A DNA stretch of 64,000 bases, taken from the IMG/VR virus record IMGVR_UViG_3300042885_001472; one strand, written 5' to 3'. The position numbers were made by a program, and so were the translations under genes. Below, piece by piece: positions 18,337 to 48,609 of this stretch. Below the pieces are notes generated by a model, which was given only the letters and a program-made list of their open reading frames with translations, had not been told where the DNA came from and ran no database searches. This DNA comes from a virus (Duplodnaviria > Caudoviricetes). Numbering within the stretch: position 1 is the first letter of the stretch; every line of letters starts with the position of its first letter.

Positions 18337-19596
18337 TTACTTACCTATTTTTATTACAATCTTATCTTTAACCTTATCAAATGTTATTTTAATAACAGTA
18401 TTTTCTTTATCTTCATTCCTTAAAATCTCTTCTGAAATAGGATCTTCAATAAACTTTTGAATAGCTCTATTTAAAGGTCTAGCCCCAAATTTCTCATCAT
18501 ATCCTTCTTTACCTAAATATTCTTTAACTGAAGAATTAATTTTTAACGTATAACCAATTTCTTTACTACGTTTTTCTAGTTTTTTAAGTTCAATTTCCAC
18601 AATTTTATGAATATCTTCTTGTCTAAGTGAATTAAAGATAATGATATCATCTAACCTATTAATAAACTCTGGCGCGAATTTCTTTTTTAACTCCTTATCA
18701 ATAATTGATTTTTTTTCTTCCTCAATAACCACACTTTTACTTTGTGTTGAGAATCCAATACCAGTACCAAAATCTTCTAAATGTCTAACACCAATATTAG
18801 ATGTCATAATGATCAAACAATTTTTAAAATTAATTTTTCTACCTAAACCATCAGTCATTTGACCATCATCTAACATTTGTAATAAAATGTTAAAGGTATC
18901 TGGATGAGCTTTTTCAATTTCATCAAAAAGGATAACACTATATGGTTTTCTTCTAACCTTTTCAGTTAATTGTCCACCATCTTCATGTCCCACATATCCC
19001 GGAGGGGCTCCGACTAATCTTGATATCGCGTGTTTCTCCATATATTCACTCATATCAATTCTAATTAAAGAATCTTCTGAATCAAACATATATTCAGCCA
19101 ATAATTTCGCTAAATAAGTGTTGTGTGATAAAATACCATTAGTATAATATCTACGATTAGAACCTTCTTTTAATTCAAGGTCATACATTACTTCTTCATA
19201 ACCTAAATTGGTTAATTGTGTAACCATTGAATTTAGAGGTTCACCATTATCATTATATTGTGTTATAATTATATCACCTAATTTTAAATCTTTAACAAAA
19301 ACTTCATCAAAATTAATTGGATTAACTTCATTGTGTTTAAACACAATATGATTATCAGCACATTTAAGCTCTTTTCCATCACTTAATTTAAGATGATATA
19401 CTTCATAGGGTATTGTTTTATGTAAAGCTTCTATGTCAACAAAACCATCATCAGTTAATACTTCGTAATCATTAATTTTGGTTGTTTTAGTAATCTTTTT
19501 TAAAGATTCTAATTCATGTTTATCAAATAATAAAACATTATCTAATTTCTCAAGTCTTTTTTGTATTTCCTCTACCCTACTCATTTTATTTTCCAT
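18337..19596 (-). CDS. clpC: ClpC fragment 3: IntC of split intein 2 fused to NBD2 from the Walker A Thr onward
   Basis: ..YYTNGILSHN|TYLAKLLAE..RIDMSEYMEKH..GAPPGYVG..LFDEIEKAHPD..GIGF..GARPL. Confidence 0.93.
   Translation of the reverse strand: MENKMSRVEEIQKRLEKLDNVLLFDKHELESLKKITKTTKINDYEVLTDDGFVDIEALHKTIPYEVYHLKLSDGKELKCADNHIVFKHNEVNPINFDEVFVKDLKLGDIIITQYNDNGEPLNSMVTQLTNLGYEEVMYDLELKEGSNRRYYTNGILSHNTYLAKLLAEYMFDSEDSLIRIDMSEYMEKHAISRLVGAPPGYVGHEDGGQLTEKVRRKPYSVILFDEIEKAHPDTFNILLQMLDDGQMTDGLGRKINFKNCLIIMTSNIGVRHLEDFGTGIGFSTQSKSVVIEEEKKSIIDKELKKKFAPEFINRLDDIIIFNSLRQEDIHKIVEIELKKLEKRSKEIGYTLKINSSVKEYLGKEGYDEKFGARPLNRAIQKFIEDPISEEILRNEDKENTVIKITFDKVKDKIVIKIGK
19120..19596 (-). mobile_element. 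split intein 2, C-half (159 aa)
   Basis: Block B CADNH; block F VMYDLEL; block G ILSHN followed by Thr+1. Confidence 0.9.
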
Positions 19597-19608
19597 ATTT
19601 TATTTTTA

Positions 19609-19640
19609 CAAATATACTATTTTTCATTTAGAAAAACAAT
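19609..19640 (-). promoter_or_regulatory. Bacteroidota-type promoter for ClpC fragment 3
   Basis: Minus-strand TTG at 19637-19639, 20 nt spacer, TATATTTG at 19609-19616, 12 nt before the ATG. Confidence 0.6.
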
Positions 19641-21098
19641 GCATTTATTTATTATTTCTTGTTTATTATTTTTATAATCATATTCACTAATATGTAATAC
19701 TTGATAACCAGATTCTAATATCATTTTATCTCTTTTTTCTTCTCTTAATGAATTTTCTGGTGTTGACCTATGATAGTAAGTACCATCAAACTCAATAATT
19801 TTTCCCTTAACTAAATCAATAAAATCTGGTAATATTACACCATTTAACAATGATAATCGATATTCATTATTTTTACCACTATCATCAATGTCACCTTTAT
19901 TAAATGTCGCAAAGAATATATTATCGTTTTTAATACTTGGTTCTGTTTCTAATATACCCCAAAATAACTGTTGTGATATTTTACTAAAATTAGTTCTTTT
20001 ATAATTAGTTAACCACTTATTTTGTCTTTCATTAAATCTTTTTAATCCGTCTTTTTCACCATATTTCTGGAGACAAATTTCTAAACTAAATGTTGTTTGT
20101 CTTTCAGTTACTTTTTCTTTAGATTGTTGATACGTGAATCCTCTATTAACCCAATAACTTATATTAGATGGTAATAACCTACTTTCATAATCAATATGTT
20201 TTAAAGCATTTAATTGATTGTTTACTACCATAATTTTAGCATCTTCTTCAGAGTATCCTTTATCCACCCAAAACTTAACCTGGGATGGTGTTTGACATAT
20301 TTTATTAATCTCTTCTTCAGAATAACCCAATTTTTGTAAATTATCTTTAGAAACTACAAACCTATCTTTAACCATCATAGAATTTTTACTTTGTATTTTT
20401 GAAATATTACTTTTAGCTTCTTCTTCAGAGTAACCTTTACTAACCCAACTATCAACACATAATCTATTAGACTTGACTATAACATCACTCAATTCTTTTA
20501 GTTTAACTTCAGCTATGTCTTTAGGTAGATACGCATTATATAAATTAGATTTAGAATATCCTTTAGTTTCACAAAATTTATTTGAACACCCAGTAATTTT
20601 ATAATAAAATAAATCTGATATATTTTTTATATTCTTTTTAGTTAATATTAAGTCTTCACCACAAATATTACATTTTGGGCGTCTGTTAGATATAAATTCA
20701 CCACCTTTAAATATTATTTTAATACTTTCATTAAATTCAATTTTATTTTTTTCATTAAGTTTGGTTTTTACACCAATATTAGACCTTTCTTTAGTTATGT
20801 TTGAAATCTTGTTTTTACCATATTCTTTAGACCAACCGCGTTCTAACCAAAAATCAAGTGTTAATAGATTAGATTTTTTAAACCCAAACTTACTCGGTAA
20901 CCATCTATTAAATCTAACCCATTTTATAAGACCATCTTGTGTCAACATATCTTGATAAATTAAATTTATTTTTTCAGTTATTAATTGACTTTCAAAATTA
21001 ATTTTATTGTTAATATTGACCAAATATTCTGTGAACTCATTAGATGTTTTAAAAACTTCTTTAACTTCTTGCCTTTTTCTATCTTTTAAAAATTGCAT
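19617..21098 (-). CDS. free-standing homing endonuclease, Vsr/DUF559-like C-terminal nuclease
   Basis: LPDF..KIIEFDGTYYH..KRD..GYQVLHISE; N-terminal W..kGySeeea repeats; lies between IntN2 and IntC2. Confidence 0.8.
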   Translation of the reverse strand: MQFLKDRKRQEVKEVFKTSNEFTEYLVNINNKINFESQLITEKINLIYQDMLTQDGLIKWVRFNRWLPSKFGFKKSNLLTLDFWLERGWSKEYGKNKISNITKERSNIGVKTKLNEKNKIEFNESIKIIFKGGEFISNRRPKCNICGEDLILTKKNIKNISDLFYYKITGCSNKFCETKGYSKSNLYNAYLPKDIAEVKLKELSDVIVKSNRLCVDSWVSKGYSEEEAKSNISKIQSKNSMMVKDRFVVSKDNLQKLGYSEEEINKICQTPSQVKFWVDKGYSEEDAKIMVVNNQLNALKHIDYESRLLPSNISYWVNRGFTYQQSKEKVTERQTTFSLEICLQKYGEKDGLKRFNERQNKWLTNYKRTNFSKISQQLFWGILETEPSIKNDNIFFATFNKGDIDDSGKNNEYRLSLLNGVILPDFIDLVKGKIIEFDGTYYHRSTPENSLREEKRDKMILESGYQVLHISEYDYKNNKQEIINKCIVFLNEK

Positions 21099-21183
21099 AT
21101 TTATTATGTTTAATAATAAATATCACGAAGTTTTGAAAAAGACCTATTTGTTGGAAAATATTTTTAGGGTGAAGTGGGATGAG

Positions 21184-21282
21184 TTAGTGTTTTATCCTAT
21201 CTATTAATTCATTAATATCAATTTTTTCAACTAAATTAGTACTTTTATTTCTTATAACTATCTGAGTATGAGATGTAAAACA
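21184..21282 (-). mobile_element. split intein 2, N-half (32 aa)
   Basis: Block A CFTSHTQIVIR directly after the Walker A Lys, then a stop codon. Confidence 0.88.
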
Positions 21283-22662
21283 TTTACCAACTCCTGTTGG
21301 ACCAAGGAAGATGAAGCTTCCTATAGGCCTTTTTGGGTTCTTAATACCCACCCTATTCCTTCTAAGAGCTTTCGCAATTTTCTCTACCGCTTCGTTTTGA
21401 CCGATAACTTTATCACCCAATTCTTTTCCCATATCTAAAAGTCTTAACCCCTCTTTAGTTGAAACTTTATTAAGTGGGATACCGGTCATCATAGAAACAA
21501 CTTCCGTTATTGATGATTCATCAACAAGACTTCTTTTATGGTTTAATTGTACCTCCCATAATTTTTTAGTTTTTTCTAAATCTTCATTTAGGATTCTTTC
21601 CTGATCTCTCAGTAAAGCGGCCTTTTCAAATTCTTGTGTCTTAACAACTGTGAGTTTTTTCTCCTTTAATTCAACAAGTTTCTTTTCTAATTCAACAATT
21701 TCTTTTGGTGGTTTAACAACAACTTGAGCTCTAGCTCCAGCTTCATCCAAAATATCAATCGCTTTATCTGGGAATTCTCGATCTGTAATATACCTTTCAG
21801 CTAACTTAACACATTCTTCAATAGCTTCTTTAGAATACTCAACTTTATGGTAATCTTCATACTTACCCTTAATATTATTTAAAATTGTTATAGTATCTTC
21901 TGGGGATGTTGGGTTAACCATAACTTGTTGAAATCTTCTAGTTAAAGCCCCATCTTTTTCAATGTTCTCTCTAAATTCATCTAATGTAGTCGCCCCAATA
22001 ATTTGGAGATCTCCTCTAGCCATCGCTGGTTTAAAAATATTTGACGCGTCAAGTGATCCGGAACTATTTCCAGCTCCAACAATTGTATGTAATTCATCAA
22101 TGAATAAAATTACATCTCTATTACCAACTAATTCGTCAAGAATACTTTTCATTCGTTCTTCAAACTGACCACGATATTTTGTACCGGCCACTAATGAAGA
22201 AAGATCTAAAGAAACAATTCTTTTACCTATTAATGTTCTTGGGGCTTTACCCTCTTTAATTTTTAACGCTAAACCCTCAATAATTGATGTATTGTGTGAT
22301 AAAATACCATTAGTGTAGTAACGTCTATTTGAATTTTCTGTTAATTCAAAGTCATACATAACTTCTTCATAACGTAAATCATTGATTTCAGAAATAACGC
22401 TAACAATAATTTGACCATTACCATCATCGGTTAAAATTTCATCACCAATATTTAAATCCTTAACAAAAACTTCCACAAAATCTTTATAGAAAACAATATG
22501 GTTATCAGCACATTTTAATTCTTTACCATCAGATAATTTAAGATGATACACTTGATATGGAATTGTTTTATGTAACTTTTCCAATTTTTTAAACCCATTA
22601 TCAGTTAAGATACTGAAGTTACTCATATCAAATGATTTTGTAAATTTTTTTAATTCTTTCAT
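21184..22662 (-). CDS. clpC: ClpC fragment 2: IntC1 + NBD1/M-domain/start of NBD2 + IntN2
   Basis: ILSHN|TSIIEG..AGTKYRGQFEER..FIDELH..GATT..RRFQ..FPDKAID..UVR-like M domain..GPTGVGK|CFTSHT. Confidence 0.93.
   Translation of the reverse strand: MKELKKFTKSFDMSNFSILTDNGFKKLEKLHKTIPYQVYHLKLSDGKELKCADNHIVFYKDFVEVFVKDLNIGDEILTDDGNGQIIVSVISEINDLRYEEVMYDFELTENSNRRYYTNGILSHNTSIIEGLALKIKEGKAPRTLIGKRIVSLDLSSLVAGTKYRGQFEERMKSILDELVGNRDVILFIDELHTIVGAGNSSGSLDASNIFKPAMARGDLQIIGATTLDEFRENIEKDGALTRRFQQVMVNPTSPEDTITILNNIKGKYEDYHKVEYSKEAIEECVKLAERYITDREFPDKAIDILDEAGARAQVVVKPPKEIVELEKKLVELKEKKLTVVKTQEFEKAALLRDQERILNEDLEKTKKLWEVQLNHKRSLVDESSITEVVSMMTGIPLNKVSTKEGLRLLDMGKELGDKVIGQNEAVEKIAKALRRNRVGIKNPKRPIGSFIFLGPTGVGKCFTSHTQIVIRNKSTNLVEKIDINELIDRIKH
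22291..22662 (-). mobile_element. split intein 1, C-half (124 aa)
   Basis: CADNH, VMYDFEL, ILSHN followed by Thr+1. Confidence 0.9.
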
Positions 22663-22719
22663 ATATTTTATTTTTTAGATTCGTTTTTTCCCTTTTATTA
22701 TAAATGGTAACGTATTTAA

Positions 22720-22821
22720 TTAGGGATTAGATAATGTTTTCAATAATTCTTCAATAGTAGTTTTTATCACTTCACCTGTTAAATCATTTCTCATAACAAC
22801 CTCAGTATCAGAACAAATACA
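22720..22821 (-). mobile_element. split intein 1, N-half (33 aa)
   Basis: Block [12 protein letters not shown] after the Walker A Lys, then a stop codon. Confidence 0.88.
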
Positions 22822-23544
22822 CTTACCAACACCCGGGTCGCCTATCAAAACGGGATTATTTTTCTTACGTCTACTCAAAATTTGAGCAACTCTTTGAATC
22901 TCATCATCTCTACCAATAACTGGATCAATTTTACCTTCTTCAGCTGATACCGTAATATCTTTAGAAAAATTATCTAAAATTGGTGTTTTACTACTAGTTT
23001 TAGTGTACTTCTTTTTTTCTGGTTCAATTGGACTACTTTCTTGTTCGTCACCTTCATAACTCGCCATAATACTTAATTCTTTAATTTTTTGTTTAAAACT
23101 ATTATAATCAACCTCAAAATCATTTAATAAAGAAGCTATGTCAGATTTAGAATTTAACATAGACAAAATCAAATGATTTAAATCAATAAACTCTGACTTT
23201 AGACTTACCGCCTCATTATCTGAATTATTAATTATTTCTGTACTATCCTTATTTAGGGGTAATATGTTATACTTTTTTTGTACTCTAGGTACGATATTTT
23301 GTTGACAATTAAATTGTAACTTAACTATCAATTTTTTAGTATCAACATTCATACTCACTAATGTTTTAACCCCCATATTATTATTATCTCTAAGTATTGA
23401 TAATAAGATATGTTCAGGTCTCACATTCACATCATTAAATTCTTTCGCGGTATCAAACGAAGAGTTCATAATTTGTTTCACTTTAGGTATTACTCTTTTC
23501 ATATTGATTAAGTTTAGTATTTTTTTTCTTAAAAGTCCAATCAT
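22720..23544 (-). CDS. clpC: ClpC fragment 1: Clp N-domain + start of NBD1 + IntN1
   Basis: [35 protein letters not shown]|CICSDT; real start may be the ATG at 23502. Confidence 0.93.
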
Positions 23545-32122: not shown

Positions 32123-32328
32123 ACAAACTAAATAAAGAACTAATAACACTAACAAAAAGTGATGTAATGTTTCTTATAGCAAGTGCTATGGGTTATGGAT
32201 GGAACGCGTCTGGTGGATATCGAGATGGAGAATTTGAAAAAATTCAAAAACGAAAAGAATTAGAAAAAGAAAATTTACTTAAATGGGCAACAACTATAAG
32301 TCAAAACAAATATGAACAACCTAGATAA
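32119..32328 (+). CDS. hypothetical protein with an MNKLNK start
   Basis: ORF track. Confidence 0.6.
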   Translation: MNKLNKELITLTKSDVMFLIASAMGYGWNASGGYRDGEFEKIQKRKELEKENLLKWATTISQNKYEQPR

Positions 32329-33523
32329 AAGTTACACAGACCTACTCCAAGACATCTTAGATAATGGAGTAACAAAAGATGACCGTACAGGTACAGGAAC
32401 AATCTCAGTATTCGGAAGACAAATACGTCATAAAATGAGTGATGGGTTTCCATTGATTACTACGAAACGAATTCCTTTTAGATTAGTGGTTACTGAACTT
32501 TTATGGTTCTTACGTGGTGATACTTCAATAGAGTATCTTTTAAAGAATGACTGCAATATATGGACAGGAGACGCTTATAAGAATTATATATTTAATTCAG
32601 AGTGGTTTCCAATTTCAAGTGTAACTGGTGGATTTATTGGAACTAAATCTGATAGTGATGAAATAATGACTCAAGATTTATTCATCAACAAAATCAAAAC
32701 AGATGATGAGTTTGCTAAGAAGTGGGGCGATTTAGGTCCTGTGTATGGTAAGCAATGGAGAAGTTGGGGTCCTATGATGAGAGATATTATTCCGTTAGAG
32801 ACTGGAGGATACGTCTATAAAGGACCAATAGACCAAATAGCAAACCTAATCAACGACCTTAAAACAAATCCTGATTCAAGACGCTTAATGGTTAACGCTT
32901 GGAATGTTGGCGAATTAGACCAAATGGTTCTTCCACCTTGTCATTATGGGTTCCAGCTTTACACAAGAGAGTTAACTGAACGTGAAAGAAATTCACATTC
33001 AATAGCATGTGATGTTAGAGGACAATTTCGTACAATGTTTTCCGAAGAAGAATTAAATGAATTTAATGTACCCAAAAGAGTAATCTCCCTAATGTTTAAT
33101 ATGAGAAGTACCGATGTTGGACTTGGCCTTGGATTCAATTTGGCCTCATACGGATTATTATTGATGATGATTGCTAAACAAGTTAATATGGTTCCTAACG
33201 AACTGATTTATAATGGAGGTGATGTACATTTATATTCAAATCATATTGAACAAGCAAAGGAACAGATTGGTAGAGAAATGAATCACGATGAAAAAGTTAA
33301 ATACGCTCGTTCATTGTATGGGGATAAAGATTGGTGGAATATCAATGATGATAGAGTTTTAGAGATATTACATTCTAACAAAAGAACAAGAGAACCATAT
33401 CCGTTACCAACAGTAAAATTATCTGATAGAGTTGTGAATGATATTTCAGAATATACTTTGGATGATATTGTTTTAGAAAATTATCAATCACATCCATCCA
33501 TAAAAATGCCGTTATCTAATTAA
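32312..33523 (+). CDS. thyA: thymidylate synthase ThyA with insertions
   Basis: DRTGTGT, ELLWFLRG, LGPVYGKQWR, PDSRR, LPPCH, RSTDVGLGLGFN, GDVHLYSNH. Confidence 0.97.
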   Translation: MNNLDKSYTDLLQDILDNGVTKDDRTGTGTISVFGRQIRHKMSDGFPLITTKRIPFRLVVTELLWFLRGDTSIEYLLKNDCNIWTGDAYKNYIFNSEWFPISSVTGGFIGTKSDSDEIMTQDLFINKIKTDDEFAKKWGDLGPVYGKQWRSWGPMMRDIIPLETGGYVYKGPIDQIANLINDLKTNPDSRRLMVNAWNVGELDQMVLPPCHYGFQLYTRELTERERNSHSIACDVRGQFRTMFSEEELNEFNVPKRVISLMFNMRSTDVGLGLGFNLASYGLLLMMIAKQVNMVPNELIYNGGDVHLYSNHIEQAKEQIGREMNHDEKVKYARSLYGDKDWWNINDDRVLEILHSNKRTREPYPLPTVKLSDRVVNDISEYTLDDIVLENYQSHPSIKMPLSN

Positions 33524-45198: not shown

Positions 45199-48100
45199 AT
45201 GGCTGATAATAAAAATTTAACGGTTTGGCAGAAACTGGGGGTTCTATTTGGACCTGATAAAAAACCTATAATAGGACCAACCAAATCATATTCAATTGAT
45301 TCAAAAGAACTATTAAGAACAAAGTCTAAAGAAGAGTTTAGTACTGAGAAATTACAAAAACAACAAAATTTATATTTAAATAATCAATGGGAGAAGGTTG
45401 ATAATACATTGTACCAACAAGCGATGTTTTATGAAACAACTAGAATTTCATCTTATACCGATTTTGAGTCTATGGAATTTTTCCCAGAGATTTCAGCGGC
45501 TTTAGATATTCTAATGGAAGAATCTACAACACAAGATAGTAAGGGTAATATTTTACAAATCCATTCCGAATCTGATAGGGTTAAAAAAGTTTTAACTGAT
45601 TTATTTCATAATAGATTAGATATCCATACAACATTACCAATGTGGACAAGGAACGTTTGTAAATATGGCGATAATTTCATATATTTAGATATTGATGATG
45701 AAAATGGTATTACTAATTGTAAACAATTACCCAATATTGAGATTGAAAGACATGAAGGTGATGTTTATAATTCAATAAATGGTGTCATTGATATTAACAG
45801 AAATAAGAAAAAGGGTGATGATCTAAAATTTGTTTGGAAAAACAGAGAGTTTGAATTTAATTCTTGGCAAATAGGTCATTTTAGATTACTTGGTGATGAT
45901 AGAAGATTACCATATGGTACTTCAGTATTAGAAAAAGCTAGAAGGATTTATAAACAATTAATGTTATCTGAAGATGCTATGTTAATTTATAGAATTACCA
46001 GAGCTCCAGAACGAAGAATATTTAAAATATTCGTGGGTAATATTGATGACAAAGATGTTGAACCATATGTACAACAAATTGCGAATAAATTTAAAAGGTC
46101 ACCGGTAGTTGATCCTAAGACTGGACAAATTGATTTAAGATATAATCAAATGGCCAATGATCAGGATTTTTTCATCCCGGTTAGAGATCAAGCAGCGACA
46201 AATCCAATTGAAACATTAGCTGGTGCGTGTATATCGTTAGATAGTAGAATTCCATTATTGGATGGTAGAACACTTACATTAAATGAAATTATTAATGAAT
46301 GGGATAATGGTAATAGAAATTTATGGGTATACTCTTGTGATCCCAAAACTGGTGAATTTACCCCTGGAATAATTACTTGGGCTGGTGTTACTAGAAAAAA
46401 TACTGAAGTAATGAAAATTACATTGGATAACGGTGAAGAGATTACCGCAACGCCTGATCATAAATTTGTTCACAGAACTAATGGCTTTGTGGCGGCTAAT
46501 GAATTAAATGTTGGTGATTCGTTAATGCCTTTTTATAGTAAAAAATCAATTTATTATAAACATTATGATTATCAACAAATATTTGATAATAAAACTCAAA
46601 AATGGGTTTGGGTACATAAAGAAGTTACTAAGTTCCATAAAAATAATTTAGTGAATGAGACAACATTTTTAGAGGAATATAAAGACCAAAATCATTCTAC
46701 TATACATCATATTAATTTTAATAGGTTTGACAATTCACCAACTAATTTAACATTTATGAATAGTAAAGACCACTTTAAATTACATTGTAAAAATCAACAA
46801 ATAGGGAGTAAAGCTTTTTCCGAGAAGTATAAAAATAACCCTAATTTCGCTAAAAGAGTAAGAAAACATTTAAATGAGTGTAATAAAATATTTCACGATA
46901 AAAGAAATTCTGATCCAGAATATAAAGAATTCATTAGAAGTAAACAAAAAGAATCTATTAATAAATTTTTTAATGAATTATCGGTAGAAGAATTAAAAAA
47001 ATGGTGTGAAAGGATTAATAACCCAATAACTAAAGCTAAAACCACAAAAAAATTATTAAAATGGTGTGAGAACCCAGACAATTTAAAATTAAAAGGTCAG
47101 ATAATTAGTACCGTTAAATCAACCCCAGAAGCTAAAGAAAAAATGAGTAAGATGTCTAAAAGTATTTGGGTGAGAGAAGGATATAAAGAGTCAGTATTTA
47201 GTAAAAAACAAACTTTAATTTTCAATGATAAACTTTACAATATGTTTATTAATGAATTTGAAAAACATTTACGTTCAGATTTAACTTTACAAGTTTTAAA
47301 TAGAAGTTCTAACTTTATGTTTGAGTTTAATTCTATTAATAAAGATATTAGGAGTTCATTAACTAATTTAAATACATTCACCCATAATCATTTAGAAAAA
47401 ATGATTAAAGAAAAAGGATTTAAAAATTTTAGGGAGTGGAAAAAAGAGGAAATTATTAAAAGAGGTTTCATCAATTTACGTCAATGGCAATATTATCTCG
47501 ATAAAGAGAATGGTAAATATGGTAGTAAAGAAAGGGGTAAGTCAATTAATCAATTCTATAATCATAAAATTGTAAAAATAGAATATCTAGAACAGAGAAT
47601 TGATACGGGCACTATCACAGTAGATGGTAATGAAATGTATCATAATCATCACACATTCGCCTTAGAATCAGGTATTTATATCAAAAATTCTAATTTGTCT
47701 GAAATTGCAGATATTGAATATCTTCAAAAGAAATTATTCGCAGCACTTAGAGTTCCTAAACCATTTTTAGGTTTTGAATCAGCTGTAGGTGATGGTAAAA
47801 ATTTAGCATTACAAGACATACGTTTCACAAGAACTGTTAATAGAATTCAACAATCTATGTTACAAGAATTAAATAAAATCGCTATTATTCATTTATTCAT
47901 ATTGGGGTTAGATGAAGAATTAAGTAATTTTACTTTAACTTTAAATAACCCTTCTACACAAGCAGAAATGTTACGCACAGAACAAATGCAGGTGAAGATG
48001 CAATTATATAAAGATTCTGTTTCTGATGCCGGTAATGGGTTTGCTGCGATGTCTATGACTAGAGCTAAGAAAGAAATATTAAACTTTTCTAATGATGAAA

Positions 48101-48609
48101 TACGTCTTGATATTGAACAACAAAGACTTGAAAAAGCAGCCGCAGCTGAATTAGCTAATACATCCGCGGTAATTAAAAAGACTGGTTTATTTGATAAGAT
48201 AGATAACATTTATGGTGATACTACTGGTGAAGCTGTCACTGAAGGTGGTGGTGATGTAACACCTCCAGCTGGTGGGCCTGAAATGGGTGGTGAAGAAATG
48301 GGTGGTGCACCTCCAGAACCAACAACACCAGAAACAACAGAACCAACACCGCCTACAATGGAGTCTGGGGTTAAAAATTTAGATAAGTTATTATTAGAAA
48401 GAAAAGAATTTTTAATGAAATCGTATGATAGTAAACAAAAAAAACATAAGGCTAATTATATTAACAAATTGATTGAAAGTATTGAAATACGAGAAGAATA
48501 CAAGGTAAATATTAATGAGAGTAAAAATAATGTTTCGGATAGTAACAATAGACACAATAATGATATAACAAATATGGTTGATAATATTAATAATTTATTA
48601 AATAAATAA
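45199..48609 (+). CDS. gp20: portal protein (T4 gp20-like) containing a cis intein
   Basis: MLSEDAMLIYRITRAPERRIFKI..DFFIPVR..ETLAGA|intein|SNLSEIADIEY..ALRVPK. Confidence 0.93.
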   Translation: MADNKNLTVWQKLGVLFGPDKKPIIGPTKSYSIDSKELLRTKSKEEFSTEKLQKQQNLYLNNQWEKVDNTLYQQAMFYETTRISSYTDFESMEFFPEISAALDILMEESTTQDSKGNILQIHSESDRVKKVLTDLFHNRLDIHTTLPMWTRNVCKYGDNFIYLDIDDENGITNCKQLPNIEIERHEGDVYNSINGVIDINRNKKKGDDLKFVWKNREFEFNSWQIGHFRLLGDDRRLPYGTSVLEKARRIYKQLMLSEDAMLIYRITRAPERRIFKIFVGNIDDKDVEPYVQQIANKFKRSPVVDPKTGQIDLRYNQMANDQDFFIPVRDQAATNPIETLAGACISLDSRIPLLDGRTLTLNEIINEWDNGNRNLWVYSCDPKTGEFTPGIITWAGVTRKNTEVMKITLDNGEEITATPDHKFVHRTNGFVAANELNVGDSLMPFYSKKSIYYKHYDYQQIFDNKTQKWVWVHKEVTKFHKNNLVNETTFLEEYKDQNHSTIHHINFNRFDNSPTNLTFMNSKDHFKLHCKNQQIGSKAFSEKYKNNPNFAKRVRKHLNECNKIFHDKRNSDPEYKEFIRSKQKESINKFFNELSVEELKKWCERINNPITKAKTTKKLLKWCENPDNLKLKGQIISTVKSTPEAKEKMSKMSKSIWVREGYKESVFSKKQTLIFNDKLYNMFINEFEKHLRSDLTLQVLNRSSNFMFEFNSINKDIRSSLTNLNTFTHNHLEKMIKEKGFKNFREWKKEEIIKRGFINLRQWQYYLDKENGKYGSKERGKSINQFYNHKIVKIEYLEQRIDTGTITVDGNEMYHNHHTFALESGIYIKNSNLSEIADIEYLQKKLFAALRVPKPFLGFESAVGDGKNLALQDIRFTRTVNRIQQSMLQELNKIAIIHLFILGLDEELSNFTLTLNNPSTQAEMLRTEQMQVKMQLYKDSVSDAGNGFAAMSMTRAKKEILNFSNDEIRLDIEQQRLEKAAAAELANTSAVIKKTGLFDKIDNIYGDTTGEAVTEGGGDVTPPAGGPEMGGEEMGGAPPEPTTPETTEPTPPTMESGVKNLDKLLLERKEFLMKSYDSKQKKHKANYINKLIESIEIREEYKVNINESKNNVSDSNNRHNNDITNMVDNINNLLNK
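46228..47688 (+). mobile_element. cis intein (487 aa) with an HNH endonuclease
   Basis: Starts CISLDSRI; TPDHKF block B; IHHINFNRFDNSPTNL HNH; ends GIYIKN followed by Ser+1. Confidence 0.92.

Follow-up and report, generated by a model that had tools for sequence, protein, structure and literature searches.

A viral ClpC-type Hsp100 gene divided over three open reading frames by two related, atypically split inteins with a putative charge code for cognate pairing

The AceL/GOS TerL inteins are the founding examples of atypically split inteins. Cat (PDB 6DSL; AceL/GOS TerL type) and VidaL (PDB 6VGV) combine a short N-terminal intein half (IntN), holding block A only, with a long C-terminal half (IntC) that carries blocks B, F and G. 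Fractured genes of phage and metagenomic origin have been described with the IntN on the upstream open reading frame (ORF), the IntC on the downstream ORF and a same-strand gene for a Vsr-like endonuclease in between (Dassa et al., 2009; PMC2677866). Three protein segments have been joined by two non-cross-reacting split inteins in engineered tandem trans-splicing (Pinto et al., 2020, PMC7090010; Humberg et al., 2025, PMC12707363), which is man-made and uses unrelated inteins. Here, we describe a natural case on a 64,000-nucleotide (nt) stretch of viral DNA (IMG/VR record IMGVR_UViG_3300042885_001472, Caudoviricetes; referred to as the window), in which two atypically split inteins, with IntC halves that are 60% identical, divide a ClpC-type double-AAA+ gene into three ORFs. 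Comparison with related loci makes it probable that the two inteins pair selectively with their cognate halves and in this way rebuild ClpC.

The locus consists of four co-directional ORFs on the minus strand, namely fragment 1, fragment 2, an endonuclease ORF and fragment 3; all coordinates given for it refer to this strand. Fragment 1 (22720-23544, 274 amino acids (aa)) encodes the N-extein 1 up to GDPGVGK, followed by a 33-aa IntN1 starting with Cys. Fragment 2 (21184-22662, 492 aa) starts with a 124-aa IntC1 ending in ILSHN, continues from TSIIEG to GPTGVGK and ends with a 32-aa IntN2, which again starts with Cys. Fragment 3 (18337-19596, 419 aa) consists of a 159-aa IntC2 ending in ILSHN and the sequence from TYLAKL onwards (AAA_2, D2-small). 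Gap 2, between fragments 2 and 3, holds the endonuclease gene and fits the layout of Dassa et al. (2009; PMC2677866), whereas gap 1, a spacer of 57 nt between fragments 1 and 2 (22663-22719) without an endonuclease gene, does not. The second fracture is a textbook fractured gene, and the inteins fall within the atypically split kind already known. The eight host enzyme types of that study do not include ClpC, and the phrase 'two split inteins' is absent from its text; in the present locus, members of one intein family interrupt a single gene at two places, the equivalent P-loops of its paralogous AAA+ modules, and the split separates block A from block B. Fragments 2 and 3 are preceded by an identical A-rich leader (AAAATAAAATAT ahead of the ATG; 22663-22680 and 19597-19616), in which a Shine-Dalgarno sequence is not obvious. 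In fragment 3, another in-frame ATG follows four codons after the first, and both 415- and 419-aa versions of it exist in databases.

The N-extein 1 (22822-23544, 241 aa) comprises Clp_N (Pfam E-value 2e-15), a linker and the beginning of the first AAA+ module (D1) as far as the Walker A sequence GDPGVGK. The middle extein (21283-22290, 336 aa) completes D1, continues with the AAA lid and a UVR-type middle domain and enters the second module (D2) as far as GPTGVGK, with Pfam matches to AAA_lid_9 (E-value 1e-30), AAA and UVR. The C-extein (18340-19119, 260 aa; stop codon 18337-18339) contributes the rest of D2 (AAA_2, E-value 2e-58), a ClpP-type GIGF loop, which was read from the translation, and ClpB_D2-small (E-value 6e-24). 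Over the three fragments the domain set of a ClpC-type Hsp100 is complete, with Clp_N, AAA, AAA_lid_9, UVR, AAA_2 and ClpB_D2-small all above the Pfam cut-off. These parts are those of class I Hsp100 proteins of the ClpC/ClpE type (Clp_N, D1, AAA lid, UVR-type middle domain, D2 (AAA_2), D2-small and GIGF loop), from which this gene differs by its three-piece coding and by the interruption of both Walker A loops. Uninterrupted ClpC homologues are found in related phages and in uncultured phages of roughly 640 kb.

Both inteins are inserted at GVGK|T (the bar marks the junction), which an earlier note on this DNA had stated and which the ORF translations bear out. Since the three extein pieces adjoin in one frame with a gap of zero in intein-less homologues (e.g., L013 and L016-L022, and dozens of viral loci; L and P numbers denote the loci and protein clusters of this analysis), both insertions are precise, between K and T of Walker A. 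Removal of the inteins restores GxxGVGKT twice without a gap, and the exteins (241 + 336 + 260 aa) add up to a ClpC of 837 aa once spliced.

The split geometry is atypical at both sites, as the IntN halves hold block A only and are each followed by a stop codon, and the IntC halves hold blocks B, F and G. IntN1 (22723-22821, 33 aa, stop codon 22720-22722) has Cys1 and an Asp at residue 13 (22783-22785) and matches the IntN hidden Markov model (HMM) with an E-value of 1.6e-16. IntN2 (21187-21282, 32 aa, stop codon 21184-21186) has Cys1 and a Lys at residue 13 (21244-21246; IntN HMM E-value 2.6e-15). IntC1 (22291-22662, 124 aa) carries blocks B (CADNH), F and G (ILSHN) and an N-terminal patch of Ser17, Lys26 and Lys29 (IntC HMM E-value 6e-61); it is followed by Thr+1 (22288-22290) in the junction SHN|TSIIEG. 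IntC2 (19120-19596, 159 aa) starts with a site-2-specific leader (approximately residues 5-28), ahead of blocks B, F and G, and its patch reads Glu45, Asp54 and Ala57 (IntC HMM E-value 1e-63); here Thr+1 (19117-19119) stands in the junction SHN|TYLAKL. Compared with Cat and VidaL, the host protein is another one, the +1 residue is Thr, the site-2 IntC has an extra leader and two family members lie side by side in one protein.

The two IntC halves are identical in 79 of 131 positions (BLASTP E-value 1e-54), a resemblance far beyond chance by sequence comparison. They share 28 of 29 residues in the block LHKTIPY.VYHLKLSDGKELKCADNHIVF, the sole difference being Q/E, and have the same final 14 residues, SNRRYYTNGILSHN. 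IntN1 and IntN2 both match C..S.T..V.RN..T..V.K..I.EL, and with their extein flanks 17 of 42 positions are identical (BLASTP E-value 2e-10). The 29-residue block, the shared IntC end, the IntN pattern and the underlying coordinates had been noted earlier from the DNA and were reproduced exactly. All catalytic residues are invariant across 100 aligned homologues. Cys1 directly follows GVGK in IntN1 and IntN2 and is a Cys in all site-1 and site-2 IntN sequences gathered (site 1 being the Walker A of D1 and site 2 that of D2), and the penultimate His, the terminal Asn and Thr+1 are present at both sites (SHN|T; H174 and N175 invariant in the alignment). Block B is CADNH, with the invariant His and with Ala at the usual Thr of TxxH; this holds family-wide, also for a contiguous member at L009. 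Pfam Intein_splicing matches on IntC1 and IntC2 are below threshold.

For the fold, the L009 relative, in which the site-2 element is a contiguous mini-intein of 173 aa, was modelled as a stand-in for the window's own halves. The AlphaFold2 (AF2) alignment consisted of IntC rows only; short IntN rows were dropped, as MAFFT set them on the IntC block-B region with or without an extein anchor. The model has a HINT fold with a predicted local distance difference test (pLDDT) score of 80.6. A Foldseek search yielded 64 PDB matches with E-values up to 1e-3, and the top 50 listed are all inteins or intein-like HINT domains (TM-score up to 0.83); the top match is the atypically split VidaL intein (E-value 4e-9) and the highest identity, 29%, is to the Cat atypical intein. 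Profile searches of solved structures yielded gp41-1 (PDB 6QAZ; E-value 4.6e-8) as the closest and CatC (E-value 1.5e-7) as the second. The two inteins of the window belong to one large atypically split family, which also has members in Walker A sites of the TerL-like type RQxGK|C. Searched for exhaustively with the L009 intein, the family gave 877 representative clusters, with the IntC mostly at the extreme N-terminus of varied host proteins; counted as relatives, there are more than 1,000 IntC homologues and at least 591 viral loci. Many proteins of the family are 'middle fragments' with an IntC first and an IntN last, e.g., in terminase-like genes with cuts at RQxGK|C and DE|C, and because of this multiply fractured genes are not confined to the present locus.

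According to the proposed mechanism, three polypeptides would be made from the doubly fractured Hsp100 gene. IntN1 would dock on IntC1 and IntN2 on IntC2, each pair completing a HINT fold and carrying out class-1 protein splicing with Cys1, the block-B His, the penultimate His, the terminal Asn and Thr+1. Splicing would join K to T and rebuild both Walker A loops in the 837-aa ClpC; before splicing, neither ATPase site would exist. As both junctions are identical (GVGK|T), the extein context is no barrier to cross-splicing. The earlier note had sized the alternative products at about 490-500 aa for a skip of the middle piece and 336 aa for the middle extein, and the exteins indeed give 501 aa (241 + 260) and 336 aa. 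Between the two outcomes that it had offered, cross-reactive or orthogonal inteins, the comparative evidence leans to the orthogonal one, and functional combinatorial splicing found no support. The exon-skipping and the cyclised products would then be absent or minor by-products. Gene order may assist cognate pairing, as IntC1 would be translated about 370 residues ahead of IntN2 on the same chain.

The evidence that points to cognate pairing is a charge signature between the intein halves. At residue 13 of the IntN, 35 unique site-1 sequences have Asp (31), Asn (3) or Lys (1), whereas 30 unique site-2 sequences have Lys (29) or Val (1). The IntC N-terminal patch (IntC1 residues 17, 26 and 29, corresponding to IntC2 residues 45, 54 and 57) is Ser/Lys/Lys at site 1 versus Glu/Asp/Ala at site 2 and has a charge opposite to IntN13 of its own lineage. 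Since the wider family is site-2-like, with Lys13 together with Glu and usually Asp, the site-1 charge state is the derived one. Among 28 unique cognate pairs, IntN13 and IntC column 99 are K/D in 14, D/K in 10, K/N in two, N/N in one and N/D in one; D/D and K/K do not occur. A covariation scan over 49 paired or contiguous family members placed IntN13 in all of the top 4 of 486 inter-fragment scores. In this family IntN13 is thus predicted to touch the IntC N-terminal patch, and the charged contact would involve the turn of the IntN hairpin and the N-terminal module of the IntC. In charge-engineered split inteins, networks of charges linking the two halves matter as well, and two charge mutations were enough for orthogonal split NpuDnaB fragments (bioRxiv 10.1101/546465). 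While gp41-1 is split at the canonical site, the inteins of the window are not, and their proposed charge patch was located by covariation only.

Three exceptions, L093, L094 and L096, unlink the signature from the insertion site and retain the complementarity. L093 combines Lys13 at site 1 with a site-2-like IntC module, and L094 has Asn13 with Asn. For P0131 (contig L096, site 1), the patch of which has Asp, a residue other than Asp at position 13 was predicted before the contig was inspected, and the IntN was found to read Asn13-Arg14. In all 13 middle fragments known, the IntC1 and the IntN2 that share a chain are mismatched, being like-charged (K/K). P0397, the protein of L093 with the reversed site-1 intein (Lys13/Asp type), has Asp99 together with a site-2 IntN that reads Val13-Asp14, the only such IntN2. 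Such a mismatch is what selection against self-cyclisation would be expected to produce. For the window itself, the non-cognate pairings would set Asp13 against Asp54 (IntN1/IntC2) and Lys13 against Lys26 (IntN2/IntC1), and a reversed electrostatic patch of this kind would make cognate pairing strongly preferred. It may further be that orthogonality evolved naturally within one intein family, through the IntN13/IntC-patch charge reversal, with self-cyclisation of the middle fragment being selected against; this we put forward tentatively.

Several observations weigh against selective pairing. The covariation largely reflects one deep split of two clades, and only three to four independent transitions support the signature. 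The IntN sequences of site 2 differ greatly among themselves (mean identity 0.49) and yet pair with near-identical IntC2, which suggests a tolerant IntN-binding site on IntC2. The identity of IntN1 and IntN2 within a genome (0.42) is not below that of random cross-genome site-1/site-2 pairs (0.39), and by the same figures a general 'character displacement' of IntN1 and IntN2 beyond the diagnostic positions was ruled out. An AF2 model of fragment 2, used as a cyclisation proxy with IntC1 and IntN2 in one chain, gave pLDDT values below 50 for block G and of 59-74 for IntN2 and no confident docking; it neither docked IntN2 on IntC1 nor excluded docking and was not taken as evidence of orthogonality. 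For L093, fragment 3 was not found within the 2.4 kb retrieved downstream of fragment 2, and its ClpC may be decaying. From engineered and natural systems it is known that NpuDnaE was not made orthogonal by charge swapping alone and that natural DnaE split inteins of similar divergence cross-react (bioRxiv 10.1101/546465). Residual cross-reaction in a 24 x 24 matrix occurred mainly with atypical splits having a short peptide half (Pinto et al., 2020, PMC7090010).

The cross-reacting DnaE homologues, the short-peptide splits as the chief source of cross-talk and the divergent IntN partners of IntC2-type halves fit another explanation, partial cross-reactivity. Some fragment 1 would then be joined to fragment 3 as a 501-aa single-ring hybrid and some fragment 2 would cyclise or concatenate, as wasteful but tolerated side products. 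It would also agree with the identical GVGK|T junctions, with IntC halves that are 60% identical and have identical catalytic blocks, and with the hydrophobic and beta-strand pattern common to both IntN halves. We nevertheless regard it as rather unlikely. The charge patch is reversed between the lineages and none of the 28 cognate pairs is like-charged; all 13 middle fragments are mismatched, the compensating exception P0397 included; and the site-2 IntC leader is lineage-specific. Moreover, self-cyclisation, with its very high effective concentration, should be strongly counter-selected, yet about one third of site-1-occupied proteins are doubly occupied and the arrangement has persisted for years. 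Cognate-selective pairing is therefore retained as the favoured reading.

The age of the two inteins was estimated from codon divergence by the Nei-Gojobori method. IntC1 and IntC2 differ with a synonymous divergence (dS) of 0.72 and a nonsynonymous divergence (dN) of 0.29 (dN/dS about 0.4). Among 79 residues identical between them, 23 use different codons, and the conserved IntC protein blocks carry many synonymous differences at the DNA level. For IntN1 and IntN2, dN is 0.61 and dS 0.50 over 32 codons, which are noisy values. The likeness of IntC1 and IntC2 is therefore attributed to purifying selection that keeps both inteins functional. The same divergence ruled out that they go back to a recent duplication within the genome or to gene conversion.

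Site-diagnostic IntC columns (39 unique site-1 versus 147 unique site-2 sequences) lie in three places only. The first is a conserved leader of about 25 aa at site 2 only, the second the N-terminal module (IntC1/IntC2 residues 11/39, 12/40, 17/45, 25-26/53-54 and 29/57), and the third two later columns (105/140, F/L, and 108/143, T/K). If these diagnostic parts are left out, the site label changes 18 times on the tree of the IntC core, compared with 31-38 times for shuffled labels and a single change expected for two clean clades. This ruled out the hypothesis of two old, cleanly separated clades, one for the inteins of each site. As the core tree is not sorted by site and variable IntC sub-blocks are common to both sites, IntC cores are exchanged between the sites, with the IntN-facing module remaining bound to its lineage. 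Hence the description of the two inteins as 'close paralogs' in the earlier note stands in part: they are one family with 60% IntC identity, but their duplication is not recent (dS about 0.7), the core mixes across sites and the IntN-facing module is lineage-specific.

The window also codes for a gp20-type portal protein, a gp23-type major capsid protein and a large terminase, and its proteins recur on contigs of up to 295 kb; the source is a T4-like freshwater jumbo phage. At least 21 metagenome runs from lakes and other freshwater, dated 2016-2024, contain at least half of the sampled words of the locus. All ORFs of the three-piece locus are intact in many independent samples, and the arrangement is stable in nature. 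These intact ORFs bear on a further explanation, according to which the locus is a decaying remnant with one or both inteins no longer splicing and no full-length ClpC made. The missing endonuclease of gap 1 would fit such a decay. Both inteins have kept every splicing residue, however, dN/dS between the IntC halves is about 0.4 and the extein domains all score strongly, which leaves decay highly improbable.

The occupancy of ClpC genes was surveyed in 80 IMG/VR loci and 16 assembly loci. Most of them have no intein; others have a split intein at site 1 or at site 2, each with or without an endonuclease gene. Further states are a site-2 intein in contiguous form, a split intein of a second family at GEPG|[C/T]GKT and a 364-aa Ala1 intein at the D1 GVGK|T. 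Double occupancy as in the window is found in about a dozen protein clusters or loci (P0122-P0155, L081-L092 and L093), and since about one third of the proteins occupied at site 1 were found to be occupied at site 2 as well, it is evidently tolerated. With at least four intein types at two P-loops, ClpC in this group of phages illustrates the colonisation of paralogous P-loops by mobile inteins.

The same survey speaks to a programmed use of the alternative products, in which full-length ClpC, a ClpX-like single-ring hybrid of N-domain and D2 and/or a circular protein of D1 and middle domain would be made, perhaps at different times. Chemically these products are possible, as both junctions are GVGK|T. 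ClpC is uninterrupted or has one intein in most relatives, though, which gives no sign that isoforms are generally needed; the inteins act like mobile elements equipped with a homing endonuclease; the hybrid of a D1 helix-strand-P-loop with a D2 body is without natural counterpart among the homologues retrieved; and the charge signature points to avoidance of cross-pairing. We therefore consider programmed combinatorial trans-splicing very improbable.

The second split family has a 23-aa IntN starting with CVLGDT and was found at the D1 Walker A of L005-L007, L038, L040, L047-L054, L061, L066 and L068. It inserts three residues upstream, so that the +1 Cys or Thr of GEPG|[C/T]GKT stands for the Val of GVGKT; it is contiguous in L061 and is paired with a site-2 split intein in L007. 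The 364-aa contiguous intein (AQPLDAK... to THN|T) occupies the site-1 position in L011, L012, L014 and L045, and L012 has a site-2 split intein in addition. An IS1595-type transposase (L093:8658-8795) and an OrfB_IS605/Cas12f-like TnpB (L094:1492-2766) adjoin ClpC loci.

Literature searches on split inteins in ClpC and on natural proteins assembled by two such inteins returned nothing relevant, the second query being poorly targeted and thus weak evidence of absence. Relative to the literature found, ClpC as a host gene, split inteins of the same family at equivalent P-loops of paralogous ATPase modules and the putative reversed charge patch appear to be new. For engineers, who need split-intein pairs without cross-talk side by side, the present sources are the screening of unrelated inteins and charge engineering. 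The locus and its dozen or so relatives represent a natural three-segment assembly with inteins of one family, identical junctions and short, synthetically convenient IntN halves. If the pairs are selective, IntN13, the patch residues 17/26/29 of IntC1 versus 45/54/57 of IntC2 and the site-2 leader would form a compact, testable specificity code and a natural example of orthogonality evolving under selection against self-cyclisation. If they are not, we would know of no earlier natural source for skipped or circular products of splicing.

The free-standing endonuclease gene of gap 2 (19617-21098, minus strand, 493 aa) lies between IntN2 and IntC2 and encodes a putative Vsr/DUF559-like C-terminal domain and N-terminal repeats of the type W..KGYSEEEAK. 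Its Pfam matches to MTES_1575 (E-value 5e-4) and DUF559 (E-value 7e-3) are weak and below the curated cut-offs. With its conserved C-terminal block PDF...IIEFDG.YYH and its position between split-intein halves it resembles EDxHD/Vsr-like homing endonucleases such as I-Bth0305I (PMC3239194), from which it differs by the long N-terminal region with repeats of its own. Searches against solved structures (PDB; sequence and 8-sequence profile) and PHROGs gave no match. Homologues with 34-71% identity sit in gap 1 or gap 2 of relatives; gap 1 carries an endonuclease gene in L003, L008 and L081, and L081 has one in both gaps. The gap-2 endonuclease would be the homing engine, and gap 1 of the window would have lost its own copy.

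Weak homologues of this endonuclease (25% identity over 63% of the length; hypothetical proteins) occur in PA5oct-group jumbo phages of Pseudomonas, and a C-terminal match with 42% identity was found in a 462-kb uncultured phage. Gap 2 of L085 (6539-8471) holds several ORFs including a PF00145 DNA methylase and a mere remnant of the Vsr-like endonuclease (residues 385-490 of the window's protein). Fragment 3 has an in-frame extension of about 230-250 aa ahead of IntC2 in L087 (6532-8475) and in P0023-P0028, P0041, P0055 and P0060 (about 650-670 aa), which may be an endonuclease or another domain fused to the IntC half.

Further inteins were observed in other genes. The 1136-aa gp20-type portal gene of the window (45199-48609, plus strand) contains a contiguous intein (Pfam Intein_splicing at residues 352-600, just below the cut-off) with an HNH endonuclease segment at about residues 448-534. 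In relatives, the neighbouring thymidylate synthase carries an intein, with a 691-aa product in L081 (1-1582; HINT and LAGLIDADG matches) and a 581-aa product in L089 (332-2077). The window's thyA (32312-33523, 403 aa) exceeds the span of the Pfam model.

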